Assembly (NCBI RefSeq): GCF_964194025.1 | Contig: NC_134468.1 | Location: 29,760,001-29,824,000, forward strand | From: Convolutriloba macropyga | Lineage: Eukaryota | DNA length: 64,000 nucleotides | Direction: 5' to 3' | Translations under genes and position numbers: made by a program | The notes under the pieces: model-generated | Told to the model about the DNA's origin: nothing | The model's input: the letters and a program-made list of their open reading frames with translations, nothing else | The model's database searches: none | Shown: one piece after another, positions 13,581 to 44,881 of the stretch | Numbering within the stretch: position 1 is the stretch's first letter | Layout: every line of letters begins with the position of its first letter

Positions 13581-14029
13581 TTAAGTTAATTGCTCAATTT
13601 TTATCCCGTGTTGCAATTGTTTGTAATGCTCTTTTGGATGGCATTTGGACTTGCAGGTTCTCGAAAATTTTGATTTTATTGACGATATGCAACGGATATC
13701 ATCTGGCAGAATACAGTAATTGATTTTTTCCACCCTCGTTTTTGCGGCGCCGATAGTTTGGCTGTTCTTGCACTTGCTCCGCCGTTGTTTTGTTCGACGG
13801 AGTGTTTGATCTTCGATTACCATAACATAAATGCTGTCAAGGCTATCTTTTTCGACTTCACCTCCGAATACGGCCATGTCAAATTTTCGTACAGTTGCAG
13901 GAAATTTTAGAAGTTCCTCAATCTTGAATGTTTCGTCTTCCCAACACTTCATAGAATCTTTATAAATCCTTCTCCGAGCTTTTATAAGGCTAGCTTTGTT
14001 TTTGCAATTTGTAGGTAGAGGGACACTTC
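13581..14029 (-). pseudogene. C-terminal integrase extension of an old Gypsy/Mag retrotransposon, left of the Maverick insertion
   Basis: TVRKFDMAVFGGEVEK aligns with TVRNSDIAKFGTREER of the young element; FYEVLG aligns with LYEVLA; SLYLQIAK aligns with AVQLNIAR. Confidence 0.75.
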
Positions 14030-15380
14030 AGTAGTATAGAGTCCTACAGTGCACGCAACGGGGAGGGGGACATTTGTGTAACCCAGGGTTTGCAACGGGG
14101 GGGGGACACAAACAAATTTTTCAAAATTTACCTTGGCGTCTTGGCAACAGCGGTGCAAGACGCCAAAAAATAGCAAAATTTTGAAAATTTCTATGTGTCC
14201 CCCCCGTTACAAACCCTGGCTTACACAAATGTCCCCCCGCGTTGGTACATTTTTGGTAAATTTTTGTCAGTTTTCGACGTTTTTGATGGGTATGGTTTCT
14301 TTTGGATGTTATTTGGGAAGTAGCACCTCTGTTTTAGTGGTTGTCATTTTGTAATCAGCCAAGGTGAGCCTCATCAGTGAAAAAACAAATTGCAAAATCA
14401 AAAATTTCGAAGTTTTAAAATCGCTTGAAATGAATTTTCGCTGGGTTTCAGGTCTCAAAAACGATTTTTTGTTGACCTCATCTTGACTGGTGAGCCTCAT
14501 CACCGAAAAAAACTTAAAAAAAATTTCGGAAAAAATTAAAATTTTTGAAGTACTAAAATTTTGTGAATTACATTTTGCGCTGGGCGTTAGGAGTCAAAAA
14601 AGATTTTTCTTGACCTCATCTTGCCTGGTGAGCCTCATCATCGAAGAAAGCGGTAAAAAAATTTAGTGGAAAAATTGAAAACTTTGAAGTGATAAAATTG
14701 AGCGTAATGAATTTTGCACCGGGTTTCAGGTCTGAAAATATACTTTTGTAGACATCATTTTACCTAGTATTAAATTTATATAAAATGTTTTATCATCAAA
14801 CATTGTCATCAATCACGGCTTACCAACTAGTTGAAAAAAAATTTTTTCAGCTTTCGTGATATTCTTTATCTGTGTTGCTATCAGTCAGTCGCTCATATCA
14901 TCTTTTAACCTTTTGTTTGATCATGCATGAGAGCGAAATATGGTAACATATAAGGAGGTGAGTGGTTGTTGCTGTGCTGGTGTTAGAACTACCTGACTCA
15001 GTAATCTATTTTTAGAGTTGAATATATACTTTGATAAACAATTATAGTCACTGCCGAGAGTCATTTTACACGAGTCATTGCACGACCAATAGAATTAGAG
15101 TGTCAATGATTTATTTCTGAATAAGTTTACATTTTCAACAGTCTGCATTGGGTTGTTTTGTTATTATAGTTTAACACAGTACTTGTATAGCAAAAAAGCA
15201 GATTTATACGAATTTGTTTGAAATTCAGTTAGAGTTTGCCTTGTAAACAAACTATGTCAGTGGTTGGCGATTGTTCCTTTTGTGACTTTTTTCACGGTAT
15301 TACCTGTACAGGAAAACGTTACGCAGTGGCCTGTGTAAAATTCTACGACTCTACTGCAACATACATAACGATAAAACTTT
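14030..15380 (+). repeat. Left terminal region/TIR of the Maverick, with sub-terminal hairpin and GGTGAGCCTCATCA repeats
   Basis: Reverse complement matches the right end (~32250-33394) with substitutions; hairpin at 14065-14237; GGTGAGCCTCATCA at ~14363, 14489 and 14627. Confidence 0.85.
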
Positions 15381-15385
15381 TCAAA

Positions 15386-16400
15386 ATGGATAAATTCCGT
15401 GATTAACTCCAAGACAACAAAAACAAATTTTAAAGTGATGGTTTCAAGTTCAACCAGAGAATTATTACATCTTCAGCTGAATTTGAACATTAAACTCAAA
15501 GCTACAATTCACTCTGTGAAAAGCTAAAGATTGATTGGACAATCAGAAGAATCTATCAAGAAAGAACGCAATAATAAAACTGGAACAAAACGACGTTAAC
15601 ATCTGGTGTTCTCATCGGTGACGAATAGCGTTCAATCAACTCAGTTTGCTGATGGAACAAAGAAGAAAATGAAGAAAAGTTCTGAGAGCGATACATCGTA
15701 TCTGTAACGGTTGAGTTTAAGTTTGAACGAACACCTGAGTTTCAAAACAAATTTCAAAACAACTTTCGGCAGTTTCAAAACAAATTTCTCTATTTAATCT
15801 GCAGAAGTGAGCCAACATTTGATAATAAATGAGTCAACAACAGTTTTGCTCACAGTTTGCATGAGAATGACAATTTTTGTAGAAGAAAAGAACAATATTA
15901 TCATGTTATTGCAGCTTTGGATCACGTAACAGAGGCTTCAATGAAAAATTCTACAAAACCCCATTAAATTCCTTGCCTATACACAGGCTTCAGACTCCTA
16001 CTCCACACAACACAATCTGTCAACATCACTCTTCACGGTGAAATTTTCGAGAAACTGGAGCAAGCAGTCATTAATAATCACCAACATCAGCTAGATTTAT
16101 ATAGCTCCAAAATAAGATTTCCAAATATCGTTGAACTGTAGACTGTAAAGAAAATGATAATGTTCAAACTAATTCATAACAGATTGTGCTTTTAACTGAT
16201 TTTTATGCGTTTATCAGAACATTTTTACTTTAAAAAAATTGTTATTATTGACAGTGGATATAGCTCCTTGAATGTTGATAATGAGAATGTTAAAATTAAC
16301 TTCCGAATTGAATTTAAAAAATTATTCCCATTTCAACAAAATCCGAGCCATCTAGCTTCAATGGAAAAATGCTACTAATTTATCCAACCAATTGATACTA
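15386..16400 (+). pseudogene. Degenerate Maverick accessory ORF(s) of unknown function, convergent on the capsid block
   Basis: ATG-initiated, stop-interrupted coding-like tracts (MDKFRD..., MSQQQFCSQF...YYHVIAALD...), also present in the diverged arm at ~28070-29100. Confidence 0.4.
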
Positions 16401-16479
16401 AAAAAATCAATCGATTGATTTGTCGTACAACATATGCTTAGAAAATCGTAGTAAATCATCATTTATTGCAATTGTAATA

Positions 16480-17774
16480 ACAGGATATGTAATAATCGAG
16501 TTCATTGTAAGTTTTTGTTTAGAGTTGACGTAAAAAGTGGAACATTGATCTCCTAGGAATAAAAGTTCAACGTTGTCACCTAAAGGTGTTGCAAAAGTGA
16601 GCTCCACTGAAATTGAACAATTTGTTAATTCACGATGAAGGAAATCGCATGAAGTTTCCTGTCTTTAATTAAGGTCGAAGGTCAAAAGAAAAGATTTGGA
16701 TAATGGGCTAGGGGAATGCCATGACCACCTTTATCAAGAAAATCTAGAGCTTCCAGCGTGTTGATGTAGACACGTTGATCTGAATTGTTGTAACAAGCGT
16801 TCCAACAACCAGTAGTCCAATTCAATAAATCACTTTCATTCAAAATTGAATTCTATCAATGGAAAAGTTTCGTTCCCAAAATCGACTGATTTGTTGACAA
16901 TGCAATAATCATTCTCCGAACGGGTTCTTTCAAGAAGATATCCTCTTGACTTCAACTGCGGATGCCAGTTGTCGCAAGAAAAATTCTGGACAACACCCTT
17001 GTGTACCGATAGACAGCTGGTGTTTTACGCAAAGTTTTTTCAATCTCAGACAACACATTAACAGCCACGGTCATTTTGCGCACGTAAAGATTTTCCTCAA
17101 CAACTTTTACTCTGTAATAATTATTAGATTCGGATATGAGATTAAAATCGTTTGGAGACCTGCTCGAGTAGATGCGTAGGGTAAAACCACAGATAAGATG
17201 TTTGTCACAGGTCAATATACCACTGGGCGGTTTTCCAAGGAGAAAACATTCCAGAGTGGGCAACTAATGTTTTTCGTGCAGCAACATCAGTAGCTAAGTT
17301 GTCAACTCCATCAATTTTAGCCGGTTCGACTTCATAATAATAGCCTTGACAAACTAACCAAGTGTTCTTGGCTGTTCTTTCGGAAAACTCTGTTTGTATG
17401 AAAGCTTTGTGTTCGTAGTTGCCGTTTGTATTTGGCAATTTAACGCCATTTGCCGAGACTGTACACTCTGAAAACAGAGTGCAGTGTGTTACTACACAAA
17501 TACGGCAAATCTGTGTGTGCTGCATCAGAAACAGTTCTCAAATCGGAATCATTGGTTCTCGTAATTTTGAAATTGATTTCAAGCAGAAAATTTTGCAAAT
17601 CATTGAAATTGTTCCTGTCGCCAACAACTTCGAATTCGAGCATTGGACCATGCGTTGAATATGATGGACCAACTTTTTGTGTAAAAGCATTGTCAAAGGT
17701 GATAAGGAGAGGCTGCTTTTCGAACAGGTATGAGTGGTGTGTGTTGCCTCTGCTAGCAATACGTTAGTATTCAT
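16480..17774 (-). pseudogene. Maverick major capsid protein (double jelly-roll/hexon-like), copy A1, frameshifted
   Basis: Motifs GPMLEFEVVGDRNNFNDLQNFLLEINFKI, NTLHS, NGNYEHKAFIQTEF...AKNTWLVCQGYY, ELTFATPLGDNVELLFLGD match the Maverick MCP pattern across several frames. Confidence 0.8.
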
Positions 17775-18187
17775 TTTTTCACTTTGGAAAAAAAATCTGA
17801 CTGACTTCTTGGTAACGGTTGTTTTCTCTGAATGGACTTTCACGATTTGATAAGATCGTTCAGTTTCTGATTTTTTATGAATTTTGCCACAACGAACACC
17901 TCCAATTTGAGCTTTTGAGCCGCCAACTTTTTTATTTAACCTTTCTCGAACTGTTGATTTGAGAGATTCTTTAGGACTCTTTCTTTGGTGACAACTTCAA
18001 CAATCTCTGGTGCCAGCTGTAAAAACATTTCTCTTCCAAATCTTTTATCAGGCCACTAATACTTTTTAGCTACCGGCATGGCCCCTCTACCCATCCCAGC
18101 TGCTAAAGCCCCGAACCCACTACCTCGTTCAGGATAGTGTGCTGCAAATTAGGGTGAAACTGATTGTTGTTGATAGTGCGCTTCCAT
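17771..18187 (-). pseudogene. Small Gly/basic-rich Maverick core-like protein, copy A1
   Basis: MEAHYQQQ...RGSGFGALAAGMGRGAMPVAKK...RSQSDFFSKVKK; lies between the minor and major capsid genes with abutting or overlapping start/stop codons. Confidence 0.6.
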
Positions 18188-19042
18188 TTAATTAAATTTA
18201 CTCAAATTTAAAGTCAGAATAATTTTTCCTGTTCCCTTAAATGAAACAAATTTGCCAGTTTCGGTTCCGAACTGAACCTCAATACACTGAAAAAAGTTTG
18301 ACAACATTTTCTTTTATTCCAAATTGCTAAAAAATTATTATATGCATAGGTTCAATATCACAAAGATTACCATTTTTCAGGCGTTGTTTTGAATCAATGA
18401 CCCGAATCAGCGGAGTTTTTGTGTCTCCAATGTGTTGATACTTAATATGTTGCTGTATACAAGTATCAAGTGTTTTCCTGCAAGCAGAACAAAAGGGCAA
18501 TCAGTGACAAAAGCATTCGCTTTTGCGTCACTCATTTCCATATTGTCAAAAAATCTATGATTTTATAACCAATATGAGTGTCAGGGCCAACTTAGATTCC
18601 TCCAAAGACCAGGATAATTGGTATTTTTTTGTCAGGAAATGTAATTCCTTAATCTTTGCCAAAGAGCAAGACCAAAACGCCTGTGATTTTATTCTAATGA
18701 TGACTGAATTTAGTTAGACTGTCTTGATGGCTTCTATCAGGTGTTCAGAGTTCCCATAGCTTCCAGCCTTGATCACGACTGTCTCCCCTTAGTATGTTTA
18801 CGAGACAGCACCAGATGGATTACTACTCTGTTGGTTTTTTGATCATCAGAGGAATACTTTCTGATTCGAGTGCTATTAACCAGATTGATTCTGGATGAGA
18901 ACATAATTCCACTGGAAGCTACTCTCCAATCACCTTCCAGGCTGATTTCTTCATTAAAAACGTTTTTGAAGATAGCCAATGTATTCTCTGGGAAGATGCT
19001 CATGGAAGCTGACAAAACTAAATGTATGGTAAACTCATTCAT
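18188..19042 (-). pseudogene. Maverick minor capsid protein (penton-like), copy A1
   Basis: N-terminus MNEFTIHLVLSASMSIFPENTLAIFKNVFNEEISLEGDWRVA; C-terminus DTKTPLIRVID...IEVQFGTETGKFVSFKGTGKIILTL. Confidence 0.75.
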
Positions 19043-19074
19043 GTTTTGTGAACGCTCTACTATTGTCAGCAACT

Positions 19075-19628
19075 TTCAATATTTCCAACTGATAGAATTT
19101 ACCCCTGATTGGATCCTGATTCGAATCAATTAGGCTCTATGTTGGAGGGTTTATTGTTGGAATATTATAAACTTCAAACACTTCGTTGGTAAATAGCTGT
19201 TTAAAATATTTCGGAAGTGTAAATCAATTTCTGATATTCTAACAAAATCACCAATTCGAAACTTTGGTCGACTAATCAATTTCTCGGACGCAATTTATTG
19301 ATAAGAGATAAGGAACGTCCCTTTTGGTGACTTTGTTTGGAGCAATTTCTGTAACACAAATTATGCATGAGTTTGTTGTTTGCACAAAGTTTTTCAACTG
19401 AAAGATTCATGATTTAGTCCATTTTTCTTCCAGATACTTGAAAATAATCTTCTTTAAAGAACGGATGTTCCTTTCAACAAAAGTAGACTTCTTTTTGGCG
19501 AAAGTTTGATAAGTTTCAAAGTTTCTCTTTTGGCCAAGTATTTTGAAAGGTCCCTTAAACTCTGTTCCATCGTCCACTCAAACTTTTTCAGCTGTTTATG
19601 CTTAATCATTTGTTTGAAGGCTTCAGCA
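19075..19628 (-). pseudogene. Maverick retroviral-like (rve) integrase, C-terminal part, copy A1
   Basis: AEAFKQMIKHKQ...VDDGTEFKG, VERNIRSLKKIIFKYL, PKFRIGDFVRIS; 5'-truncated at a junction with a TIR copy. Confidence 0.8.
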
Positions 19629-22600
19629 CGCAACGGGGAGGGGGACATTTGTGTAACCCAGGGTTTGCAACGGGGGGGGACACAAACAAATTTTTCAAAA
19701 TTTATCTTGGCGTCTTGGCAACAGCGGTGCAAGACGCCAAAAAATAGCAAAATTTTGAAAATTTCTATGTGTCCCCCCCGTTACAAACCCTGGCTTACAC
19801 AAATGTCCCCCCGCGTTGGTACATTTTTGGTAAATTTTTGTCAGTTTTCGACGTTTTTGATGGGTATGTTTCTTTTGGATGTTATTTGGGAAGTAGCACC
19901 TCTGTTTTAGTGGTTGTCATTTTGTAATCAGCCAAGGTGAGCCTCATCAGTGAAAAAACAAATTGCAAAATCAAAAATTTCGAAGTTTTAAAATCGCTTG
20001 AAATGAATTTTCGCTGGGTTTCAGGTCTCAAAAACGATTTTTTGTTGACCTCATCTTGACTGGTGAGCCTCATCACCGAAAAAAACTTAAAAAAAATTTC
20101 GGAAAAAATTAAAATTTTTGAAGTACTAAAATTTTGTGAATTACATTTTGCGCTGGGCGTTAGGAGTCAAAAAAGATTTTTCTTGACCTCATCTTGCCTG
20201 GTGAGCCTCATCATCGAAGAAAGCGGTAAAAAAATTTAGTGGAAAAATTGAAAACTTTGAAGTGATAAAATTGAGCGTAATGAATTTTGCACCGGGTTTC
20301 AGGTCTGAAAATATACTTTTGTAGACATCATTTTACCTAGTATTAAATTTATATAAAATGTTTTATCATCAAACATTGTCATCAATCACGGCTTACCAAC
20401 TAGTTGAAAAAAAATTTTTTCAGCTTTCGTGATATTCTTTATCTGTGTTGCTATCAGTCAGTCGCTCATATCATCTTTTAACCTTTTGTTTGATCATGCA
20501 TGAGAGCGAAATATGGTAACATATAAGGAGGTGAGTGGTTGTTGCTGTGCTGGTGTTAGAACTACCTGACTCAGTAATCTATTTTTAGAGTTGAATATAT
20601 ACTTTGATAAACAATTATAGTCACTGCCGAGAGTCATTTTACACGAGTCATTGCACGACCAATAGAATTAGAGTGTCAATGATTTATTTCTGAATAAGTT
20701 TACATTTTCAACAGTCTGCATTGGGTTGTTTTGTTATTATAGTTTAACACAGTACTTGTATAGCAAAAAAGCAGATTTATACGAATTTGTTTGAAATTCA
20801 GTTAGAGTTTGCCTTGTAAACAAACTATGTCAGTGGTTGGCGATTGTTCCTTTTGTGACTTTTTTCACGGTATTACCTGTACAGGAAAACGTTACGCAGT
20901 GGCCTGTGTAAAATTCTACGACTCTACTGCAACATACATAACGATAAAACTTTTCAAAATGGATAAATTCCGTGATTAACTCCAAGACAACAAAAACAAA
21001 TTTTAAAGTGATGGTTTCAAGTTCAACCAGAGAATTATTACATCTTCAGCTGAATTTGAACATTAAACTCAAAGCTACAATTCACTCTGTGAAAAGCTAA
21101 AGATTGATTGGACAATCAGAAGAATCTATCAAGAAAGAACGCAATAATAAAACTGGAACAAAACGACGTTAACATCTGGTGTTCTCATCGGTGACGAATA
21201 GCGTTCAATCAACTCAGTTTGCTGATGGAACAAAGAAGAAAATGAAGAAAAGTTCTGAGAGCGATACATCGTATCTGTAACGGTTGAGTTTAAGTTTGAA
21301 CGAACACCTGAGTTTCAAAACAAATTTCAAAACAACTTTCGGCAGTTTCAAAACAAATTTCTCTATTTAATCTGCAGAAGTGAGCCAACATTTGATACTA
21401 AATGAGTCAACAACAGTTTTGCTCACAGTTTGCATGAGAATGACAATTTTTGTAGAAGAAAAGAACAATATTATCATGTTATTGCAGCTTTGGATCACGT
21501 AACAGAGGCTTCAATGAAAAATTCTACAAAACCCCATTAAATTCCTTGCCTATACACAGGCTTCAGACTCCTACTCCACACAACACAATCTGTCAACATC
21601 ACTCTTCACGGTGAAATTTTCGAGAAACTGGAGCAAGCAGTCATTAATAATCACCAACATCAGCTAGATTTATATAGCTCCAAAATAAGATTTCCAAATA
21701 TCGTTGAACTGTAGACTGTAAAGAAAATGATAATGTTCAAACTAATTCATAACAGATTGTGCTTTTAACTGATTTTTATGCGTTTATCAGAACATTTTTA
21801 CTTTAAAAAAATTGTTATTATTGACAGTGGATATAGCTCCTTGAATGTTGATAATGAGAATGTTAAAATTAACTTCCGAATTGAATTTAAAAAATTATTC
21901 CCATTTCAACAAAATCCGAGCCATCTAGCTTCAATGGAAAAATGCTACTAATTTATCCAACCAATTGATACTAAAAAAATCAATCGATTGATTTGTCGTA
22001 CAACATATGCTTAGAAAATCGTAGTAAATCATCATTTATTGCAATTGTAATAACAGGATATGTAATAATCGAGTTCATTGTAACTTTTTGTTTAGAGTTG
22101 ACGTAAAAAGTGGAACATTGATCTCCTAGGAATAAAAGTTCAACGTTGTCACCTAAAGGTGTTGCAAAAGTGAGCTCCACTGAAATTGAACAATTTGTTA
22201 ATTCACGATGAAGGAAATCGCATGAAGTTTCCTGTCTTTAATTAAGGTCGAAGGTCAAAAGAAAAGATTTGGATAATGGGCTAGGGGAATGCCATGACCA
22301 CCTTTATCAAGAAAATCTAGAGCTTCCAGCGTGTTGATGTAGACACGTTGATCTGAATTGTTGTAACAAGCGTTCCAACAACCAGTAGTCCAATTCAATA
22401 AATCACTTTCATTCAAAATTGAATTCTATCAATGGAAAAGTTTCGTTCCCAAAATCGACTGATTTGTTGACAATGCAATAATCATTCTCCGAACGGGTTC
22501 TTTCAAGAAGATATCCTCTTGACTTCAACTGCGGATGCCAGTTGTCGCAAGAAAAATTCTGGACAACACCCTTGTGTACCGATAGACAGCTGGTGTTTTA

Positions 22601-25200
22601 CGCAAAGTTTTTTCAATCTCAGACAACACATTAACAGCCACGGTCATTTTGCGCACGTAAAGATTTTCCTCAACAACTTTTACTCTGTAATAATTATTAG
22701 ATTCGGATATGAGATTAAAATCGTTTGGAGACCTGCTCGAGTAGATGCGTAGGGTAAAACCACAGATAAGATGTTTGTCACAGGTCAATATACCACTGGG
22801 CGGTTTTCCAAGGAGAAAACATTCCAGAGTGGGCAACTAATGTTTTTCGTGCAGCAACATCAGTAGCTAAGTTGTCAACTCCATCAATTTTAGCCGGTTC
22901 GACTTCATAATAATAGCCTTGACAAACTAACCAAGTGTTCTTGGCTGTTCTTTCGGAAAACTCTGTTTGTATGAAAGCTTTGTGTTCGTAGTTGCCGTTT
23001 GTATTTGGCAATTTAACGCCATTTGCCGAGACTGTACACTCTGAAAACAGAGTGCAGTGTGTTACTACACAAATACGGCAAATCTGTGTGTGCTGCATCA
23101 GAAACAGTTCTCAAATCGGAATCATTGGTTCTCGTAATTTTGAAATTGATTTCAAGCAGAAAATTTTGCAAATCATTGAAATTGTTCCTGTCGCCAACAA
23201 CTTCGAATTCGAGCATTGGACCATGCGTTGAATATGATGGACCAACTTTTTGTGTAAAAGCATTGTCAAAGGTGATAAGGAGAGGCTGCTTTTCGAACAG
23301 GTATGAGTGGTGTGTGTTGCCTCTGCTAGCAATACGTTAGTATTCATTTTTTCACTTTGGAAAAAAAATCTGACTGACTTCTTGGTAACGGTTGTTTTCT
23401 CTGAATGGACTTTCACGATTTGATAAGATCGTTCAGTTTCTGATTTTTTATGAACTTTGCCACAACGAACACCTCCAATTTGAGCTTTTGAGCCGCCAAC
23501 TTTTTTATTTAACCTTTCTCGAACTGTTGATTTGAGAGATTCTTTAGGACTCTTTCTTTGGTGACAACTTCAACAATCTCTGGTGCCAGCTGTAAAAACA
23601 TTTCTCTTCCAAATCTTTTATCAGGCCACTAATACTTTTTAGCTACCGGCATGGCCCCTCTACCCATCCCAGCTGCTAAAGCCCCGAACCCACTACCTCG
23701 TTCAGGATAGTGTGCTGCAAATTAGGGTGAAACTGATTGTTGTTGATAGTGCGCTTCCATTTAATTAAATTTACTCAAATTTAAAGTCAGAATAATTTTT
23801 CCTGTTCCGTTAAATGAAACAAATTTGCCAGTTTCGGTTCCCAACTGAACCTCAATACACTGAAAAAAGTTTGACAACATTTTCTTTTATTCCAAATTGC
23901 TAAAAAATTATTATATGCATAGGTTCAATATCACAAAGATTACCATTTTTCAGGCGTTGTTTTGAATCAATGACCCGAATCAGCGGAGTTTTTGTGTCTC
24001 CAATGTGTTGATACTTAATATGTTGCTGTATACAAGTATCAAGTGTTTTCCTGCAAGCAGAACAAAAGGGCAATCAGTGACAAAAGCATTCGCTTTTGCG
24101 TCACTCATTGCCATATTGTCAAAAAATCTATGATTTTATAACCAATATGAGTGTCAGGGCCAACTTAGATTCCTCCAAAGACCAGGATAATTGGTATTTT
24201 TTTGTCAGGAAATGTAATTCCTTAATCTTTGCCAAAGAGCAAGACCAAAACGCCTGTGATTTTATTCTAATGATGACTGAATTTAGTTAGACTGTCTTGA
24301 TGGCTTCTATCAGGTGTTCAGAGTTCCCATAGCTTCCAGCCTTGATCACGACTGTCTCCCCTTAGTATGTTTACGAGACAGCACCAGATGGATTACTACT
24401 CTGTTGGTTTTTTGATCATCAGAGGAATACTTTCTGATTCGAGTGCTATTAACCAGATTGATTCTGGATGAGAACATAATTCCACTGGAAGCTACTCTCC
24501 AATCACCTTCCAGGCTGATTTCTTCATTAAAAACGTTTTTGAAGATAGCCAATGTATTCTCTGGGAAGATGCTCATGGAAGCTGACAAAACTAAATGTAT
24601 GGTAAACTCATTCATGTTTTGTGAACGCTCTACTATTGTCAGCAACTTTCAATATTTCCAACTGATAGAATTTACCCCTGATTGGATCCTGATTCGAATC
24701 AATTAGGCTCTATGTTGGAGGGTTTATTGTTGGAATATTATAAACTTCAAACACTTCGTTGGTAAATAGCTGTTTAAAATATTTCGGAAGTGTAAATCAA
24801 TTTCTGATATTCTAACAAAATCACCAATTCGAAACTTTGGTCGACTAATCAATTTCTCGGACGCAATTTATTGATAAGAGATAAGGAACGTCCCTTTTGG
24901 TGACTTTGTTTGGAGCAATTTCTGTAACACAAATTATGCATGAGTTTGTTGTTTGCACAAAGTTTTTCAACTGAAAGATTCATGATTTAGTCCATTTTTC
25001 TTCCAGATACTTGAAAATAATCTTCTTTAAAGAACGGATGTTCCTTTCAACAAAAGTAGACTTCTTTTTGGCGAAAGTTTGATAAGTTTCAAAGTTTCTC
25101 TTTTGGCCAAGTATTTTGAAAGGTCCCTTAAACTCTGTTCCATCGTCCACTCAAACTTTTTCAGCTGTTTATGCTTAATCATTTGTTTGAAGGCTTCAGC
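19626..25200 (+). repeat. Near-identical direct duplication (A2) of 14051-19625 (offset 5573-5575 bp), including MCP, core, penton and integrase pseudogenes
   Basis: ORF track repeats at +5573 (16407 to 21980; 18773 to 24346); only about ten differences seen by eye. Confidence 0.97.
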
Positions 25201-25264
25201 TGTTGACTGTCTTTTACGCTATCTACGTGTTGAACTATTCAAAACAAAATATGCAACAACAACA
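25198..25264 (+). pseudogene. Integrase core fragment AVDCLLRYLRVELFKTKYATTT marking the fold-back centre
   Basis: Corresponds to the VIDVFSKY...PLKTK segment that precedes AEAFKQ in Maverick integrases; opposite orientation to the adjacent A2 integrase; continues logically at 26323. Confidence 0.7.
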
Positions 25265-26322
25265 AAATCATTGACACTCTAATTCTATTGGTCGTGCAAT
25301 GACTCGTGTAAAATGACTCTCGGCAGTGACTATAATTGTTTATCAAAGTATATATTCAACTCTAAAAATAGATTACTGAGTCAGGTAGTTCTAACACCAG
25401 CACAGCAACAACCACTCACCTCCTTATATGTTACCATATTTCGCTCTCATGCATGATCAAACAAAAGGTTAAAAGATGATATGAGCGACTGACTGATAGC
25501 AACACAGATAAAGAATATCACGAAAGCTGAAAAAATTTTTTTTCAACTAGTTGGTAAGCCGTGATTGATGACAATGTTTGATGATAAAACATTTTATATA
25601 AATTTAATACTAGGTAAAATGATGTCTACAAAAGTATATTTTCAGACCTGAAACCCGGTGCAAAATTCATTACGCTCAATTTTATCACTTCAAAGTTTTC
25701 AATTTTTCCACTAAATTTTTTTACCGCTTTCTTCGATGATGAGGCTCACCAGGCAAGATGAGGTCAAGAAAAATCTTTTTTGACTCCTAACGCCCAGCGC
25801 AAAATGTAATTCACAAAATTTTAGTACTTCAAAAATTTTAATTTTTTCCGAAATTTTTTTTAAGTTTTTTTCGGTGATGAGGCTCACCAGTCAAGATGAG
25901 GTCAACAAAAAATCGTTTTTGAGACCTGAAACCCAGCGAAAATTCATTTCAAGCGATTTTAAAACTTCGAAATTTTTGATTTTGCAATTTGTTTTTTCAC
26001 TGATGAGGCTCACCTTGGCTGATTACAAAATGACAACCACTAAAACAGAGGTGCTACTTCCCAAATAACATCCAAAAGAAACATACCCATCAAAAACGTC
26101 GAAAACTGACAAAAATTTACCAAAAATGTACCAACGCGGGGGGACATTTGTGTAAGCCAGGGTTTGTAACGGGGGGGACACATAGAAATTTTCAAAATTT
26201 TGCTATTTTTTGGCGTCTTGCACCGCTGTTGCCAAGACGCCAAGATAAATTTTGAAAAATTTGTTTGTGTCCCCCCCCGTTGCAAACCCTGGGTTACACA
26301 AATGTCCCCCTCCCCGTTGCGT
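25265..26322 (-). repeat. Inverted copy of the left terminal region (reverse complement of ~19626-20690)
   Basis: ORFs 19882-20076(-) and 25874-26068(+) give identical translations; the same TIR/integrase junction is reproduced at ~26320. Confidence 0.95.
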
Positions 26323-26755
26323 GCTGAAGCCTTCAAACAAATGATTAAGCACAAACAGCCGAAAAATGTTTGGGTGTTTGCTGGAACAGAGTTTAAGGGA
26401 AAACTCAAAACCAGAGGAGAAACATTGAAACTGATCAAAATTTCAGCAAAAAGAAGTTGAACTTTTTAAAGATCTTTATTTACAAGTATCTGGAAGAAAA
26501 ATGGACAAATTCATACATCTGTTGAAAAAATTTGTGCAAACAATAAACTCACACATCAACCGTTCAACAAAAGTTGCTCCGAACAAAGTCACCAAAAAAG
26601 ACGTTCCTCATCTTTTATCATTCAACGCAATTGCGTCCGAGAAATTAGTTAGGCGTCCAAAATTTCGTATTGGTGGTTTTGTTAGAATATCAGCTGACTT
26701 ACGCTTCCGAAAAGTCAAAAACAGACATTTACCAACGAAATGTTTGAAGTTCATG
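26323..26755 (+). pseudogene. Maverick integrase, diverged arm B
   Basis: AEAFKQMIKHKQPKNVWVFAGTEFKG; FVQTINSHINRSTKVAPNKVTKKDVP; RPKFRIGGFVRIS. Confidence 0.8.
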
Positions 26756-27646
26756 AACGCTCGAAAAGGCTTTCTTAGAAACAGAGTTTTCATCCAGAAG
26801 AACAGCCAAGAACTCTTGGTTAATTTGTCAAGGCTATTATTATGAAGACGAAACGGCTAAAATTGATGGAGCTGACAACAGAGCTACTGATGTTGCTGCA
26901 CGAAAAAATTTAGTTGCTGACTCCCTGGACTGATTTCTCCTTGGAAAACCGCCCAGTGATATATTGACTGGTGACAAACATCTTACTTTTGGTTTTACCC
27001 TAAGCACCTCCTCCAGAAGGTCTCCATACATTTTTACCTTCTTTTCCGAATCTAATAAACATTACAGAGTAAAAATTGTTGAGGAAAATCGTTACGTGCG
27101 CAAAATGACCGTGGCTGTTAGTGTGTTGTCTGCGATTGAAAAACTTTGCTTAAAACACCAGCTGTCTATCGGAACACGGAGATGTTGCCCAGAACTTTTC
27201 TTGCCATTAGTCAAGAAGACACTCGTCAAGAAGACTAACAGAACAAACCCTTTTTATTAAAAGAAATTAAGTTTGAATGAAATATTGATTTGTCGAAATG
27301 GACTACCGGTTGTTGGAAAGCCTATTTCAACAACCTCAAATCGACCTGTCTCCTTCAACATGCTTGAAGCTCTAGATTTTCTTGACAACGGTAGTCATGG
27401 CATTTACCTAGCCGATTATCCATATCACTTTATTTTGATCTGGGACCTTACTTCAAACGATTTCACACGATTTCATTCACATTGAATTAACAAATTGTTC
27501 AATTTAAGTGGAGCTCGCTTTTGGAACAACTTTGGTTGACAACATTAAAATATTTTTTCCAACGGGAACGAAATTCAGTTTTTTACGTAAACTCTGAACG
27601 AAAGGTTAAAAGCAACTCGGTTGCTACATATCTCTTTGATGGATAA
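26756..27646 (+). pseudogene. Maverick major capsid protein, C-terminal part, diverged arm B
   Basis: KAFLETEF, QGYYYEDE and KHYRVKIVEENRYVRKMTVAVSVLSAIEK are homologous to copy A1; fused to the integrase by a deletion. Confidence 0.78.
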
Positions 27647-28069
27647 TTTTGAGATAAATTATCTACTAGGTAAAAGTGTTCATCTGAAGTACCAGTTTTG
27701 CGGAGTTTTTGCAGCTGCTAATTTTCTAAAACTGCCAGATGATTGCTCTAATGCGGTCAGTGCCCCAATGTCAACATCATTGGGAAGTAATTAGCTAATG
27801 ATTTTGAATTATAACAAACAATTTACTTTAGTGATCCACTTGGGCAAGCACTGGATTGCTACCATTTTGAATACATTTACCTGCTGCAAATCTGCTTCGT
27901 AGAAGAAGTTGTTCAATTTCTTAGTTTCCAACCATTTCAGATCCCAATGTCAAAATTGTTTGGACTCTTTTGTATTTATTTTGCTCATATTTTTTTCACA
28001 TATAGCTATCCATATGCACATTACTTGAATAATGATGATTTACTACGATTTGCTAAGCATATGATGTAG
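27639..28069 (+). pseudogene. Adenain-type cysteine protease (Maverick PRO), inactivated
   Basis: FCGVFAAANF, GSN* (expected GxHW), FSDPLG and MSKLFGLFCIYF (expected SxxCGxFCxYF); immediately follows the MCP. Confidence 0.72.
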
Positions 28070-29099
28070 GACAAATCAATCGATTGTTTTTTTAGTAATA
28101 ATTGTTTTGATAAGTTAGTAGCATTTTTCCTTTGAGGCTAGATGGCTCGGATTTTGTTGAAAAATATGGGAATAATTTATTAACTCAAATCGGAAGTTAA
28201 TTTTTCTATTCTCTTTATCAACATTCAGGGAGCTTTATCCGAAAAAAGTAATATCAATTTGTGTAAAATTAAAACATAAGAAATGTTCTGATAAGTACAT
28301 AAAAATCGGTTAAAAGTAAAAGCTGATATGAAATCATTTTGAACATTATCATTCTCTTTGACAGTCTCCAGTTCAATGGCATTTGGAAATCTTATTTTGG
28401 AGCCATATAAATCTAGCTGATGATGGTGATTATAAATGACTGCTTGCTCCAGTTTCTCAAAATTTTTACCCTGAAAAGTGTTGCTGACAGATTGCGTTTT
28501 AAGGAGTAGATGTCTGAAGCCTGTGTATAGGCAAGGAATTTAATAGCGTTTTAAAAAATTTTATTTAAAGCTTCTGTTACTTGATCCAAAGCTGCAATAA
28601 CATGATAATATTGTTCTTTTCTTCTACAAAAATTGTCAATCTCATGCAAACTGTGAGCAAAACTGTTGTTGACTCATTTAGTATCAAAGGTTGGCTCACT
28701 TCTGCAGATAAAAAAAAGAAATTTTTTTTGAAACTGCCTAAAGAATTCGGGTGTTCGTTCAAACTTAGCCTCACCCATTACTAATACGGTGTTTCGCTCT
28801 CAGAACTTTTCTTCACTTTCTTCTTTGTTCCATCAGCAAACTGATTTGATTTAACGCTATTCGTCTCCGATGAGAACGCGAGATGTTAACGTCGTTTTCT
28901 TCCCGTTGTTTTTTTGCGTTTTTCTTGATAGATTCTTCTGATTGTTCAGTCTTTAGCTTTTCACAGGTGAATTGTAGTTTTGAATTAATTGTTCAAACTC
29001 AGCTAAAGAGAGTGTAATTCTCTGGTTGAACTTAGACCAGCACTATTGCAATGATTTTTGTTGTCTTAGAGTTGATCACGGAATTTATCCTTTTTGAAA

Positions 29100-32000
29100 A
29101 GTTTTACCGTTATGACGGTTGCAGTGGATTTGTAAATTTTTACACAGGCCACTGCATAACGTTTTTCTATACAGGTAAAATTGTGAGAAAAGTCACAAAA
29201 GGAACAATCGCCAACCACTGACATAGTTTGTTTACAAGGCAAACTCTAACTGAATTTCAAACCAATTCGTATAAGTCTTTTTTTTTGCTATACAAGTACT
29301 GTGTTAAACTATAATAACAAAACAACCCAATGCAGACAGTTGAACATGTAAACTTATTCAGAAATAAATCATTGACACTCTAATTCTATTGGTCGTGCAA
29401 TGACTCGTGTAAAATGACTCTCGGCAGTGACTATAATTGTTTATCAAAGTATATATTCAACTCTAAAAATAGATTACTGAGTCAGGTAGTTCTAACACCA
29501 GCACAGCAACAACCACTCACCTCCTTATATGTTACCATATTTCGCTCTCATGCATGATCAAACAAAAGGTTAAAAGATGATATGAGCGACTGACTGATAG
29601 CAACACAGATAAAGAATATCACGAAAGCTGAAAAAATTTTTTTTCAACTAGTTGGTAAGCCGTGATTGATGACAATGTTTGATGATAAAACATTTTATAT
29701 AAATTTAATACTAGGTAAAATGATGTCTACAAAAGTATATTTTCAGACCTGAAACCCGGTGCAAAATTCATTACGCTCAATTTTATCACTTCAAAGTTTT
29801 CAATTTTTCCACTAAATTTTTTTACCGCTTTCTTCGATGATGAGGCTCACCAGGCAAGATGAGGTCAAGAAAAATCTTTTTTGACTCCTAACGCCCAGCG
29901 CAAAATGTAATTCACAAAATTTTAGTACTTCAAAAATTTTAATTTTTTCCGAAATTTTTTTTAAGTTTTTTTCGGTGATGAGGCTCACCAGTCAATTGAG
30001 GTAAATAAAATCGTCTTTGAGATCTCAAACCCGGCGCAAAATGCATATCATGCAATTTTAAAATTTCGAAAAGATCGATTTTTTTCAAAATTTCCAAAAA
30101 CTTTTTGGTTCGATGATGAGGCTAACCTGGACCGATTACAAAATGACAACCATTAAAACAGCAATGCTACTTCCAAACTAAGATCCAAAACAAACCATAC
30201 CCATCAAAAACTGACAACAGAAACTGACTAACGTCGTTTTCTTCCCGTTGTTTTATTGCGTTTTTCTTGATAGATTCTTCTGATTGTTCAGTCTTTAGCT
30301 TTTCACAGGTGAATTGTAGCTTTGAATTAATGTTCAAATTCAGCTGAAGATACAATAATTCTCTGGTTGAACTTGAAACCATCACTTTAAAATTTGTTTT
30401 TGTTGTCTTGGAGTTAATCACGGAATTTATCCATTTTGAAAAGTTTTATCGTTATGTATGTTGCAGTAGAGTCGTAGAATTTTACACAGGCCACTGCGTA
30501 ACGTTTTCCTGTACAGGTAATACCGTGAAAAAAGTCACAAAAGGAACAATCGCCAACCACTGACATAGTTTGTTTACAAGGCAAACTCTAACTGAATTTC
30601 AAACCAATTCGTATAAGTCTTTTTTTTGCTATACAAGTACTGTGTTAAACTATAATAACAAAACAACCCAATGCAGACAGTTGAACATGTGAAATTATTC
30701 AGAAATAATTCATTGACACTCTAGTTCCATTGGTCGTCCAATCAAAATCGAATACAATTACTCGTTTAAAATGACTTTCGGCAGTTACTATAATTGTTTA
30801 TCATAGTATATATTCAACTCTAAAAATAGGTCGGTGTCTCAGATAGTTCTAACAACAGCACAGCAAGAACCACTCACCTCCTTATCTATTACTATAATTT
30901 GTTCCCATGAATGATCAAATAAAGGGTTAAAAGATGATTTGAGTGGACTGACTGATAGCAACAGACATAAAGAATACCACTAACACTCAATAGTTTTTAT
31001 CAACTAGTTGATGAGCAGTTATTGATGACAATGTTTGATGATAAAACAATTGATATAAATTTAGTGCCAGGTTAAAATGATGTCCACAAAAAGTTAACTT
31101 TCAGACCTGAAACTCGGTGCAAAATGAATTTCACACAATTTTAACACTTCAAAATTTTTGCATTGTCCGCAAAATTTTTCTTTTTTTTTCGATGATGAGG
31201 CTCACCAGTCAATTGAGGTAAATAAAATCGTCTTTGAGATCTCAAACCCGGCGCAAAATGCATATCATGCAATTTTAAAATTTCGAAAAGATCGATTTTT
31301 TTCAAAATTTCCAAAAACTTTTTGGTTCGATGATGAGGCTAACCTGGACCGATTACAAAATGACAACCATTAAAACAGCAATGCTACTTCCAAACTAAGA
31401 TCCAAAACAAACCATACCCATCAAAAACTGACAACAGAAACTGACTAACGTCGTTTTCTTCCCGTTGTTTTATTGCGTTTTTCTTGATAGATTCTTCTGA
31501 TTGTTCAGTCTTTAGCTTTTCACAGGTGAATTGTAGCTTTGAATTAATGTTCAAATTCAGCTGAAGATACAATAATTCTCTGGTTGAACTTGAAACCATC
31601 ACTTTAAAATTTGTTTTTGTTGTCTTGGAGTTAATCACGGAATTTATCCATTTTGAAAAGTTTTATCGTTATGTATGTTGCAGTAGAGTCGTAGAATTTT
31701 ACACAGGCCACTGCGTAACGTTTTCCTGTACAGGTAATACCGTGAAAAAAGTCACAAAAGGAACAATCGCCAACCACTGACATAGTTTGTTTACAAGGCA
31801 AACTCTAACTGAATTTCAAACAAATTCGTATAAATCTGCTTTTTTGCTATACAAGTACTGTGTTAAACTATAATAACAAAACAACCCAATGCAGACTGTT
31901 GAAAATGTAAACTTATTCAGAAATAAATCATTGACACTCTAATTCTATTGGTCGTGCAATGACTCGTGTAAAATGACTCTCGGCAGTGACTATAATTGTT

Positions 32001-33394
32001 TATCAAAGTATATATTCAACTCTAAAAATAGATTACTGAGTCAGGTAGTTCTAACACCAGCACAGCAACAACCACTCACCTCCTTATATGTTACCATATT
32101 TCGCTCTCATGCATGATCAAACAAAAGGTTAAAAGATGATATGAGCGACTGACTGATAGCAACACAGATAAAGAATATCACGAAAGCTGAAAAAATTTTT
32201 TTTCAACTAGTTGGTAAGCCGTGATTGATGACAATGTTTGATGATAAAAGTCACAAAAGGAACAATCGCCAACCACTGACATAGTTTGTTTACAAGGCAA
32301 ACTCTAACTAAATTTCAAATCAATTCGTATAAGTCTTTTTTTTGCTATACAAGTACTGTGTTAAACTATAATAACAAAACAACCAAATGCAGACAGTTGA
32401 ACATGTGAAATTATTCAGAAACAATTCATTGACACTCTAGTTCCATTGGTCGTCCAATCAAAATCGAATACAATTACTCGTTTAAAATGACTTTCGGCAG
32501 TGACTATAATTGTTTATCATAGTATATTTTCAACTATAAAAATAGGTTGGTGTCTCAGATAGTTCTAACAACAGCACAGCAAGAACCACTCACCTCCTTA
32601 TCTATTACTATAATTTGTTCTCATGAATGATCAAATAAAGGGTTAAAAGATGATTTGAGCGGACTGACCGATAGCAACAGACATAAAGAGTACCACTAAC
32701 ACTCAATAGTTTTTTATCAACTAGTTGATAAGCAGTTATTGATGACAATGTTTGATGATAAAACATTTGATACAAATTTAGTACCAGGTTAAAATGATGT
32801 CCACAAAAAGTTAACTTTCAGACCTGAAACTCGGTGCAAAATGAATTTCGCACAATTTTAACACTTCAAAATTTTTGCATTGTCCGCAAAATTTTTCTTA
32901 TTTTTCGATGATGAGGCTCACCAGTCAAATTGAGGTAAATAAAATCGTCTTTGAGATCTGAAACCCGGCGCAAAATGCATTTTATGCAATTTTAAAATTT
33001 CGAAATGATCGACTTTTTTCAAAATTTACAAAAACATTTTTTTTCACTGATGAGGCTCACCTGGACTGATTACAAAACGACAACCACTAAAACAGCAGTG
33101 CTACTTCCAAACTAACATCCAAAACAAACCATACCCATCAAAAACTGACAAAATTTACCAAAAATGTGTCTTCCTGGGCACGCAACGGGGGGGGGGGGTT
33201 GTCTAATCCAGGGTTTGCAACGGGGGGACACAAAAAAGTTTTCAAAATTTTGGTTTTTTTTGGCGTCTTGCACCGCTTTTGCCAAGAAGCCAAATACCAA
33301 AATTTTGAAAATTTTTTGTCCCCCCCGTTGCAAACCCTGGGTTACACAAATGCCCCCATCCCTCGTTGCGTGCCCTGTAAGACACTATACTACT
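29100..33394 (-). repeat. Tandemly reiterated sub-terminal/TIR segments (including a 1217-bp direct repeat) ending in the right TIR
   Basis: ORFs 30167 and 31384 are identical (offset 1217); the terminal block recurs at ~29.2-30.2, 30.5-31.4, 31.7-32.25 and 32.25-33.39 kb in two sequence variants. Confidence 0.9.
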
Positions 33395-34493
33395 CACTTC
33401 CGATCGAGGGACGGGTAGGCTTTGGACTTCACTCCTTGTCAGTCGTGATTCGCCCCGATTGTGGTCCTTACATTTGATTCGCCTCGATTGTGGTCCTTAC
33501 ATTTGATTCGCCTCTTGAATCATTTTTATTTCTGTTGGTTTACAATTCGTTTTCATCGCGACTCCTTTCATGCCAGGCGATTTCGGTAACAAGGAATTTC
33601 CAGCCAACTGTCCATTTCTAAATATTTATTAACATGACTTTTGTATCAGTTTTTGAATTAGGTTGGAGTTTATTTAATTCCCGCCTAAATTAGGCTTCGA
33701 AACAGAAATAAGTCAGAGTTGTTGGTTTGTTTTAGAGTTCAAACAAAGATCTCAAATTGAATTTTCCTATGGCTGCCTCATTTATACTTGCTTCGCGACT
33801 TATTATTTGTTTTCTACCAGCCTTATGACTAATCCAATAGCGCTCCACTTTTTATCTGGCTCTTCACCTATGTCTTTATTGTTTTTCTCACAGAAAGTAG
33901 TGATTCGTCGGCAAATCTGATATCATGCTGGATCGAATCTAATGGTGCGTGGTACGTGGTGCTTCAGAATCTAAATTTTGTAAAATAATGGGATGAAAAC
34001 TTTGAAAAGCAATCAATAAATGCAGAGAAATATAATTCCTGCACTTTTCCGTTGAATATTGGTCCCTCGTAAGTATTCTGATTTCTTCATTTGGTTATTT
34101 GCACTTTTTAGTCCTTTGCAATTGCATTTGTTAGATAAGACTATGTGATTCAATTGTTGTAAACCAATTTTGATGCTCGGGTTGCATTTCGACGTTTTCG
34201 CGATTATAAGCTCTTTCATTTAGGGTCACCAGCCCGTAGGGATCCCGCCTAAGTAAGTAGGACAAAATCTGATCGCATTGCTTGGTTGTCGGCCAGTTTG
34301 CAATATTTCACTTCTTTCAGTTCTCAACCTTTGGTTGTGAGGATTGCAACTAGTGTTTTCATAAAAAATCTTTGACAATGCAAAGTTGAAGGCATTTTTC
34401 TGAGGTACAGATCATTTGAGATGTTTCAGGTGGATTTTTTTGAATCTCAGTGATGGTTTTTTAGGGGTCATAGAGTACTGTGATAATTGACGT
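33395..34493 (-). pseudogene. Integrase of the old Gypsy/Mag relic, right of the Maverick
   Basis: KTLVAILTTKG*ELKEVKYC aligns with KGLIASLTSKDAVLKEVRDC; HVPRTIRFDPA with HGVPRSLRIDQA; AIGLVIRL with AIGLVERL; ESRLTRSEVQSLPVP with ESRFLRTTQAHLPLP. Confidence 0.78.
33447..33514. repeat. 29-bp tandem duplication
   Basis: GATTCGCC(C/T)CGATTGTGGTCCTTACATTT, about 2.3 copies. Confidence 0.9.
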
Positions 34494-34912
34494 TGTCGTA
34501 CGCAAGTGAGATTGCGTACTTGATCTTGAGTCGCGAGTTGCGTTTATGTTTTATGTCCTACTTGCGCGGCGAGTGCGCTTTACACAATTTCTAAATGAAT
34601 CCGCTTAGCGAATCGCTTGATGATTATTCGTTTACTTTACTCGATTCGTAAAGACAGTTAATGAAGAATAAGTTAAATTGAGCAACTGTACGCGAAGTGC
34701 AAAACTAAGAGAATGAAAATTAAGGCAACTGGTATTCCAGAAGTCATAACAAACGTGAACAATAATTTCCCGCTATGGGAGATGGGAACAACAGACTAGC
34801 ATGTGAAAAAACATTGACTTGTACACATGCCCCTCAGGAATAAGTACACTAAATAAATTAAGTACATCGTATAATAAATTTACTGCACTGAATTAATTTA
34901 TGATGTATGACA
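34494..34912 (-). repeat. 3' LTR
   Basis: TGTCGTAC...GTATGACA; about 4 substitutions versus 44463-44881. Confidence 0.97.
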
Positions 34913-35873: not shown

Positions 35874-37645
35874 AGCATCCAGATTTTTCTTGGATTTTTA
35901 TGAAGATGTTTCTTTCGGGCAATGTTTAACTGTACGGCGTGTTCTTTCAGAGGAAGTGGAAGATGCGCTTGCGTGGTGCGAAGGAAACGGGATTCATTAT
36001 CGGTTGCTAGCCGTTCGCGAGTGGTGGCGTCCTTTGTCGCTTTACACATATTGCGTTCAATTTCGTCGTCACTCTGGCTGTTTCCCCAGTGTTCCTCAGG
36101 CAGCAATTCATTAGGGGTTACAGTTTCTTCATCTAAATAATGATTCAGAATTTTTTCATAACTTAGATCAGATGATTTTGGTTGAGTACTTATATTACTA
36201 AGTGGTGTATTGGCTTTACGCCCAAAGTGAGATTCGAATGGCGAAAGCTTAGTTGTTTTATGTTTACATATGCGAAGCTGGTATATAATTAATTTTAATG
36301 CTGCTTTAATGGTGAACGAATTTAATTCTTTATTTGCTTCTTTTATACATGCCAAGCGTTGTTTAATAGTACCAATAAGTCTTTCAACTAAACCTATTGC
36401 ACGATGGCCGTTTGCCGGAGCTGGTATTAGTGTGATATTATTTTTTGTACAAAAAATTTTTACTTGGTTACCTACAAGACAACGAGCTTGGTCTATTCTT
36501 AAGGAACGAGGAACTCCATGAATTTGTATATAATTATCTAAAAACTTTATGACATTCGAGGAATTTGCATTATCAACCAATTCTGCAGAAGGATATTTTG
36601 ATAATCTATCAATACATGTTAAAATGTATATTTCATGTTCTTTTTCGTTATTAATGGGCCCTGCAAAATCTATTTGTATTTCTTGGTTCGGAACTATACA
36701 TGGTGTATGTGCTTTAAATTGTTTTGCGGGAATGAGAGATTTTAAATTTTTACCGATAGCAGTGCAAGATTTGCACTCTATTGCTTTGACAAGCAAATTA
36801 CGATTCATGTATTGCCACCAGCAGTGCTGAGCCATACATACCATCCCCCAGCTACCTGGGTGACTCGCATGCAAATCGTCAATGAGGGCATCTTTGAGTG
36901 CATTCGGAATGGCCACCTTCTCGTCCATACAAACACACCCGCCAGTCACATGAAGGTCCCGCCAATAGCTATGGAGATACGGGTTGAGGGCCTTTGGTCG
37001 TTCTTCATCTCTCCGTGTTATACAGTCCCGAACCTCTTTCAGAACTGCGTCCTTGCTTGTGAGTGATGCTATTAGACCTTTGCTGAACACTTTTCCCACC
37101 ACTCTCTCAAAAGACATTACTTGGGGGCTATCCGTTAGTGGGGTGCTCAGATTTGAATGCGAGGAGGATCTGCGTGGAGTACTTGTGGTTGCATTGTCTG
37201 TAAACGATACGCGGGGCGAAGCTCTTGTTGTTTGGGAGGAGATTGATTTTCCCTTGAGAGATGAAGCTTGTTGACTCATTGTTGATGAGAGTTCAGTTTT
37301 TTCAATTAAGTTAATTGACAAGGAGGAAGACAAGTGAATTTCAGGTTGAGTTTGGGCAAAAAGCACTTGTTTGTTGTTTGTTAATTGAGCACGTGAGTTA
37401 TTTAAAGTATTTGAGTGTGGTTTACTAAAAAAGGTAGGAATTTGAGGCTGATTTTTGATTGACAAGTGAGAGTGACATATTGGAGCAAATTTGGAAGTAT
37501 TTTGGTAAGCGAGTGACGCTTTTCTTGTTTTTACAAGCATTTGAGGCTCAATTTGTACAAGATTAGTTGTAAATGGTAGACTATGCGACGCAAATTTAGA
37601 ATGAATTGGGTATTTAGTAACTTGCTTTGCATCTGAGGAATGCAT
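35843..37645 (-). pseudogene. pol: Pol: Ser/Thr-rich linker plus integrase
   Basis: HASHPG...CKSC zinc-binding motif; IQIDFAGP, RIDQA and GLVER (DDE core); SPFESHFGRK. Confidence 0.93.
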
Positions 37646-37975
37646 TCTAGTCTTTTGAGTAAATAATAAAGTATTATGCCTGGCGGGTGTTAATTTGTTA
37701 AAAGAAAAGCGTACTCGCGATGCGAGATCGGAGGTGGTATTAATTAATTTAGAAGTGTTGACTTTTGAAGTAGGATATGTATGTGCGAATACGGAATCAT
37801 TTTGAGTTGAATGTACTCGCTGATCATGTGCACTAGTACAATTAATACTATTAGTGGAATGAAGAAATGAGTTATGTTTTTGATCCGCGAATGATTTAGT
37901 ATTATCGGTTAAGTGTACGCGCGGGGCGTGTGTACTATACTGATGATTGAATTTAAGGGACGTTACTTTAGAGTT

Positions 37976-44463: not shown

Positions 44464-44881
44464 GTCGTACGCAAGTGAGATTGCGTACTTGATCTTGAGT
44501 CGCGAGTTGCGTTTATGTTTTATGTCCTACTTGCGCGGCGAGTGCGCTTTACACAATTTCTAAATGCATCCGCTTAGCGAATCGCTTGATGATTATTCGT
44601 TTACTTTACTCGATTCGTAAAGACAGTTAATGAAGAATAAGTTAAATTGAGCAACTGTACGCGAAGTGCAAAACTAAGAGAATGAAAATTAAGGCAACTG
44701 GTATTCCAGAAGTCATAACAAACGTGAACAATAATTTGCCGCTCTGGGAGATGGGAACAACAGACTAGCATGTGAAATAACATTGACTTGTACACATGCC
44801 CCTCAGGAATAAGTACACTAAATAAATTAAGTACATCGTATAATAAATTTACTGCACTGAATTAATTTATGATGTATGACA
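44463..44881 (-). repeat. 5' LTR
   Basis: 419 bp, matches 34494-34912. Confidence 0.97.

Follow-up and report, generated by a model that had tools for sequence, protein, structure and literature searches.

We analyzed a 64-kb stretch of contig NC_134468.1 of Convolutriloba macropyga (the window, to which all unprefixed coordinates refer; loci of relatives in the same genome carry the handle G000). It contains a Maverick, or Polinton, built of two inverted arms that carry decayed versions of one gene block (Table 1). The element begins with AGTAGT at 14030, ends with ACTACT at 33394, and is flanked on both sides by the 6-bp target-site duplication (TSD) CACTTC, as an earlier note on this DNA had read it. 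Its left flank occurs only once in the assembly (1 of 1 candidate), which leaves no empty-site copy to compare.

Gene labels were taken from intact natural relatives, since the element's own genes are broken. None of 18 open reading frames (ORFs) of the window scored above a Pfam cut-off, because the genes are too broken. The integrase of an intact relative scores 38 bits against PF00665 (cut-off 32.6), a relative's ATPase is above the PF04665 cut-off, and the protease of an intact relative matches PF00770 (E 3.8e-7) and adenain 1avp. The relatives' major capsid protein (MCP) matches double jelly-roll (DJR)-like Atlas clusters at 0.98, one of which carries PF21738 in 24% of its members; the recognition score is below the bar, so this match is a lead only. 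MCP sequences gave no match in Pfam and none (0) among PDB sequences.

Arm A carries the gene block on the minus strand, arm B on the plus strand. Arm A has lost most of the protease gene (~400 bp), and arm B lacks ~1.8 kb comprising the minor capsid gene and the 5' part of the MCP gene. The 3' part of the integrase gene is present, broken, in both arms, and its 5' part is lost. Neither the protein-primed polymerase B (pPolB) nor the packaging ATPase, nor any other gene of the missing half, was found in the element by tblastn (E ≤ 0.01) or blastn. Thus, the same block in inverted halves, which the earlier note described, is present in the orientations it gave, but is incomplete in each arm, and the missing polymerase and ATPase that it reported were not recovered by these searches either. 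Its palindrome does have two inverted arms, but is not a simple one: a tandem duplicate, an inverted insertion, and a mosaic of arm identities with exact tracts are superimposed on it.

Table 1. Features of the element and its immediate flanks, in window positions
Feature	Position	Strand	Remarks
Left TSD	14024..14029		CACTTC
Arm A, first unit	14030..19627	-	terminus and terminal inverted repeat (TIR) region, accessory ORF remnant, protease remnant, MCP, minor capsid, integrase 3' part; all decayed
Left TIR region	14030..15350		end approximate; natural TIRs of relatives 1.2-1.5 kb; terminal ~240 bp palindromic
Accessory ORF remnant o207, unnamed	15689..16318	+	common to relatives and helpers
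Adenain-like protease, C-terminal remnant	16407..16478	-	~400 bp deleted at 16462/16479
Major capsid gene	16479..17800 (end approximate)	-	stops and frameshifts; intact relative matches DJR-like clusters
Presumed minor capsid gene	18191..19075	-	broken; label from gene order; no family match
rve integrase, 3' part up to fold point	19038..19627	-	relative above PF00665 cut-off
Recent tandem duplicate of 14051-19627	19626..25200	-	99.84%; 2-bp GC microhomology; breakpoint at fold-back stem
Fold-back junction, left stem	25199..25205		7-bp inverted microhomology, natural in integrase gene
Single-copy 54-nt loop	25206..25259	+	integrase sequence directly upstream of fold point in relatives
Recent inverted insertion	25265..26324	-	identical to 19626-20685; inside right stem of junction
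Arm B, parental orientation	26323..33394	+	integrase 3' part, MCP 3' part, protease, accessory ORF, subterminal mosaic, right terminus
Arm B deletion	26751/26766		~1.8 kb
Adenain-like protease remnant	27609..28066	+	weak PF00770 match, E 0.11
Subterminal tandem duplications	28887..33151		arm-B-native DNA interspersed with exact arm-A tracts
Exact arm-A tracts on B side	29188-29262, 29346-29995, 30354-30604, 31571-32245, 32246-32309		
Right TSD	33395..33400		CACTTC

Fold-back junction and probable common origin of the arms

A 175-bp query over the center of the element (40 of 270 candidates scored) matches as a whole at the element's own locus, and at all 38 other scored loci as two adjacent pieces on opposite strands. 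The central segment is therefore integrase sequence from just upstream of the fold point. The corresponding site in relatives has a natural 7-bp inverted repeat, GCTGTTG ... CAACAGC, around 54 nt, which is intact in 12 of 15 copies compared. Although a later insertion has divided the right stem of the junction in the element, the two arms remain identical over their innermost 29 bases. Judged from sequence, the junction has the anatomy expected of a 3' end that folds on itself and primes synthesis. Before the later duplications, the element would have measured an estimated ~12.1 kb, near the size of its parent.

In each of 6 segment trees, the two arms group as sisters (support 74-100; 12-21 relative sequences per segment), and do not fall with different Maverick subfamilies, the outcome that the earlier note had named as fatal to its reading. 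Outside its own duplicate, arm A has its best genome match in arm B (84% versus ≤82% elsewhere, among the 40 of 111 candidates that were scored). On arm-B-native DNA, with sums taken over bins, the arms differ at 121 of 1035 positions (11.7%) over 14030-15230, in the TIR region, and at 131 of 1163 (11.3%) over 15250-16450, beyond it. There is no step at the TIR boundary, and the equality of arm and TIR divergence claimed from first inspection stands. A 6.7% arm distance for 14279-15600 was excluded from dating because an exact arm-A tract biases the figure. The coding blocks of the arms differ by 12-21%, and the TIR pairs of relatives by 1.6-7.9% (best blocks).

Over 398 codons, the arms carry 92 and 90 private changes, and share 25 changes unseen in relatives. 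The private changes are neutral in type (150 non-synonymous or stop versus 32 synonymous). In four blocks there are no shared indels, versus 14 and 11 private ones. The few shared and many private changes, with no shared indel, date the duplication to about the first fifth of the decay. These comparisons support a probable origin of both arms from a single template, at an age close to that of the insertion.

Polymerase-less parents, candidate helpers, and mobile palindromes

The element's parent belongs to a family of ~12.8-kb Mavericks with capsid, protease, ATPase, and integrase genes. None of 19 copies (16 with both ends) has pPolB, and the ATPase gene is kept in 18 of 19; most copies are 11.4-13.5 kb long, and most have a 6-bp TSD of their own. 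The absence of pPolB is thus a trait of the whole parent family, and the fold-back removed only the ATPase half. Because differences between clades of the family are mostly synonymous (35 versus 8 non-synonymous), the family has evolved under selection without a polymerase of its own.

The terminal 30-mer of the family has 221 matches in the genome, and 5 of 10 further elements with this terminus are 19- to 21-kb Mavericks with pPolB. Full-length candidate helpers with the same termini, which the earlier note had called for, are therefore present. Over the 240-bp termini, polymerase-less copies match the helper type that has the same terminus at 92-96% identity, and the other type at 82-87% (three values of 79-82%); in MCP DNA they are 66-69% identical to the helpers, in a comparison of those helpers that had a blastn match of 150 bp (three had none). 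The arm B terminus falls with the TATAG helper type (88%). A second polymerase-less lineage, with ~2-kb TIRs and pPolB in 0 of 3 copies, has its termini and an 86-93% identical core in common with 17.4-kb autonomous elements. There are, then, two polymerase-less, capsid-encoding Maverick lineages whose termini fit specific autonomous families; the genes of the first do not fit them, and those of the second do so only in the core block. From these patterns we infer that such lineages probably depend on helpers and have captured their termini.

The terminal ~240 bp of each end of the element (14036-14237 and 33166-33385) form an imperfect palindrome, as in the helpers. This is a candidate origin structure, and the segment is likely a cis-acting origin.

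Two other arrangements were considered and rejected. Mavericks with pPolB found with PF03175 (77 matches, of which 7 were examined) belong to unrelated families, with integrases of 27-35% identity and no DNA match, and do not qualify as helpers. A bipartite system with a separate polymerase-only segment is contradicted by the second polymerase type, which adjoins capsid genes at 10 of 10 loci examined. The pPolB at G000:C5:42.32 Mb, in a frame of 1235 amino acids, starts with a C2H2 zinc finger in its N-terminal part and has a weak match, below the cut-off, to an endonuclease-VII-like domain (E 0.0013).

Near-whole palindromes of 12-17 kb with Maverick ends and without genes are found at five loci (G000:C3:66923122-66935303, C15:22990311-23003558, C6:16520144-16537499, C2:7236355-7251139, and C4:44971187-44985816). 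Four of the loci have distinct 6-bp TSDs (CCTATC, GGTGTA, GGCACT, and GGTGCG), and the same center is seen in four; thus, Maverick-ended palindromic molecules have integrated repeatedly. Their arms differ by 2.5-4.6% within copies versus 3.0-5.8% between copies, and are sisters within copies (one arm, at C15, was left out of this comparison). The terminus of this family has 89 matches and is common to 16.8-kb Mavericks with pPolB. Among 10 elements with this terminus, 7 are complete, 1 is internally deleted, 1 has an end replaced by an inverted copy of its other end, and 1 is a palindrome.

A second palindromic derivative of the parent family lies at G000:C1:85624904-85630912 (TSD ATAATC), and a similar junction is found at C16:5.96 Mb. 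These two loci, the latter spanning C16:5966415-~5971212, are hybrid palindromes in which 1.8 kb of the family's protease-side end is joined to DNA of the gene-less palindromes; the two carry different terminus types.

Formation and remodelling of the element

We favor, at a rough probability of 55%, a pre-integration snap-back: a Maverick without polymerase would have folded back from a single template outside the chromosome, during helper-driven replication, and the product would have been integrated once in trans. The parent is the 12.8-kb family with termini matching those of 19-kb pPolB Mavericks. A strand that started at the protease-side end would have halted ~60 nt beyond the fold point in the integrase gene. 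Its 3' end would then have paired by means of the 7-bp inverted repeat and primed a copy back to the same end. The resulting ~12-kb palindrome, having both ends in valid form yet lacking a complete integrase gene, would have been inserted in trans by the integrase of a helper, giving the 6-bp TSD. Both arms then decayed neutrally and independently. The ~12-kb fold-back of half a virus that the earlier note proposed is thus retained as a true fold-back of one element's half, of about that size, with the correction that pPolB was already missing in the parent.

The strongest alternative, which we regard as a real but doubtful possibility, is an early fold-back within the chromosome. An inserted 12.8-kb copy would have broken in its ATPase half. 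Its resected end would have folded at the 7-bp repeat and been extended back as far as the TIR, and annealing with the opposite TIR would have preserved both ends and the TSD. The TSD does not separate the two models, since it would also survive a chromosomal fold-back of this kind, resolved by way of the opposite TIR. Indeed, both models predict the same structure, and the timing is close to insertion.

Several observations weigh against a pre-integration origin. First, the exact junction pattern, with up to three mismatches allowed, has 1 match in the genome (control 1), and a degenerate pattern yields 1 perfect match plus 14 three-mismatch matches, of which 6 are known ordinary integrases. 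The junction, which the earlier note proposed to look for at other loci with different TSDs, was therefore found at one locus, a point in favor of the chromosomal model, and there is no sign of amplification as a lineage, although old copies could be missed. The same result removes support from the earlier note's defective-interfering genome. Second, the shared changes are 16 non-synonymous to 9 synonymous, versus 8 to 35 between active clades (p=0.0002), and include one shared stop. This excess suggests some decay before the duplication, old conversion, or parallel mutation; given 13 sites at which both arms differ, up to ~10 shared changes may be parallel hits, the rest being early decay or old conversion. 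Third, fold-backs in yeast are resolved through oppositely oriented homology (PMC7467729), which here the TIR would supply, presumably most easily while the TIRs were still identical. Fourth, chromosomal template switching has been active at the element's locus and at G000:C9:26605204-26621076, and rearrangement in place is frequent among family copies. Finally, read support comes from a single study, in the form of short unitigs.

The chromosomal model must nonetheless accommodate at most 25 shared versus ~90 private changes per arm and no shared indel, which confine it to roughly the first fifth of the decay. Moreover, the outer TIR segment is not older than the rest, and palindromes are demonstrably mobile in the same genome.

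Chromosomal remodelling has occurred since. About 7 kb of the element is recent, comprising the 5.6-kb tandem duplicate (a head-to-tail repeat with 9 differences in self-alignment), the 1.06-kb inverted insertion, and exact arm-to-arm tracts. The breakpoint of the duplicate and the insertion both lie in the fold-back stem, with 2-bp microhomology, and the five exact arm-A tracts, of 64-675 bp, are set amid arm-B DNA that is ~85% alike. All three would be products of breaks in the tip of the hairpin and of switches of template from one arm to the other in the chromosome. Even at 12% divergence, a palindrome continues to drive copying from arm to arm, so that ages read from TIR or arm identity alone lose reliability.

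In-place changes are also seen elsewhere. At G000:C9:26605204-26621076, a Maverick has, in place of one of its ends, the pPolB end in inverted orientation, at an identity of 95.5% over 1858 bp and of 99.9% over another 939 bp; its TSD, CTCCTA, is intact. Family copies at G000:C3:51683896-51710218, C4:49463000-49485238, and C1:80345132-80362847 carry in-place tandem duplications; the types seen are a head-to-tail dimer, a left end present six times with its flank, and doubled internal blocks.

A different origin, in which two family members inserted nearby in opposite orientation were joined by a deletion, is very unlikely and already largely refuted. Two of the coding trees have internal branches so short (0.008 and 0.009, with support of 74 and 86) that they could reflect long-branch attraction, but every one of the six trees pairs the arms as sisters, a single 6-bp TSD encloses both, and both stop at one base within an inverted repeat that occurs naturally there and adjoins an unbroken loop.

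Logan unitigs from runs X1-X4, all from one study that possibly includes the source of the assembly, support the assembled sequence. In X1, unitig depth climbs with copy number in the assembly, from 43 for single-copy sequence to 77, 95, 136, and 202, and the tandem duplicate has ~2x the single-copy depth. In X2, an exact 47-bp unitig crosses the junction at a depth of 54.5, reaching 23 and 17 letters past the stem, which is below the 31-letter rule for a bridge; an exact 102-bp unitig crosses the loop and the insertion joint at a depth of 24. A joint that bypasses the insertion, at a depth of 24.9, may be a second, older allele. High-depth joints bypassing the insertion were rejected as alternative alleles, being ordinary family integrases. 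Least probable of all is an assembly artefact, arising from repeats phased wrongly or from fold-back reads that were chimeric. Mis-assembly can produce exact duplicates and tracts, and X1, X3, and X4 lack a unitig over the loop (gaps that prove nothing and were not used as evidence), but an arm difference of 11-21% is beyond what a read artefact can give, the X2 unitigs are exact across junction, loop, and insertion joint, and the X1 depths scale with copy number.

Elsewhere in the window are recent tandem duplications at 37314-43648 and 50284-56338 (99.4% and 98.8%), a ~705-bp satellite array at 50055-64000, and 419-bp direct repeats (99%) at 34494-34912 and 44463-44881 that are likely the long terminal repeats of a young retrotransposon.

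Relation to known elements and viruses

The element could show how mirror-image Mavericks, likely spread with the enzymes of a helper, arise. Somewhat short of even odds, in our estimate, is a broader Maverick satellite ecosystem, in which polymerase-less, capsid-encoding lineages capture the termini of helpers, snap-backs are replicated and integrated in trans, and this locus is a founder of the kind that grew into the gene-less palindromic families. The interest lies as much in the helper-matched polymerase-less families as in the locus itself. A fold-back mapped to the base inside a viral gene, helper-matched termini, and mobile palindromes are traces by which one can test for complementation in trans and for a replication intermediate that is single-stranded and begun at an end. 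To our knowledge, Maverick replication has never been watched in animals, and non-autonomous Polintons are known. Our literature search found no title or abstract opening on snap-back Mavericks, a weak negative that leaves most subscription papers (the original Polinton papers and Repbase reports) and supplements uncovered.

Like the Mavericks/Polintons described in PMC8097293, PMC10748475, and PMC6431247, the element has AGTAGT ends, long TIRs, a 6-bp TSD, and remnants of an rve integrase, an adenain-like protease, and a DJR-like major capsid gene. Unlike the autonomous forms, it lacks pPolB, the ATPase, and the integrase 5' part, is wholly palindromic, and has decayed in all its genes. In PMC5499653, pPolB is given as defining for Maverick/Polinton elements, and the element has none. 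According to PMC8097293, Maverick particles have not been observed.

Butterfly polintons (bioRxiv 10.1101/2025.02.07.637071) resemble the element in that capsid and protease genes are doubled in inverted terminal arms and that variants without polB occur. Those arms are ~2 kb long and surround a unique core, and polB is missing in variants with LINE (long interspersed nuclear element) cargo or a gypsy element. By contrast, the ~6-kb arms of our element meet at a 54-nt loop, and its parent family lacks pPolB as a rule.

The foldback inversions of yeast (PMC7467729) likewise begin with a looped hairpin formed where a short inverted repeat lies, followed by a switch to inverted homology, and give the same end structure. 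The differences are that the homology used here would be the element's own TIR, and that the event dates near insertion.

Snap-back or copy-back defective viral genomes (PMC13506859; for the snapback of adeno-associated virus, PMC10924063) are alike in having one genome end mirrored around a small loop and in needing a helper. Copy-back forms are described mainly from negative-strand RNA viruses (PMC13506859). Our element differs as an integrated germ-line fossil of which one copy was found, with no sign that it replicated as a lineage or interfered with a helper. In its build, it fits a snap-back: a near-whole palindrome, made from one template and joined at a short inverted repeat.

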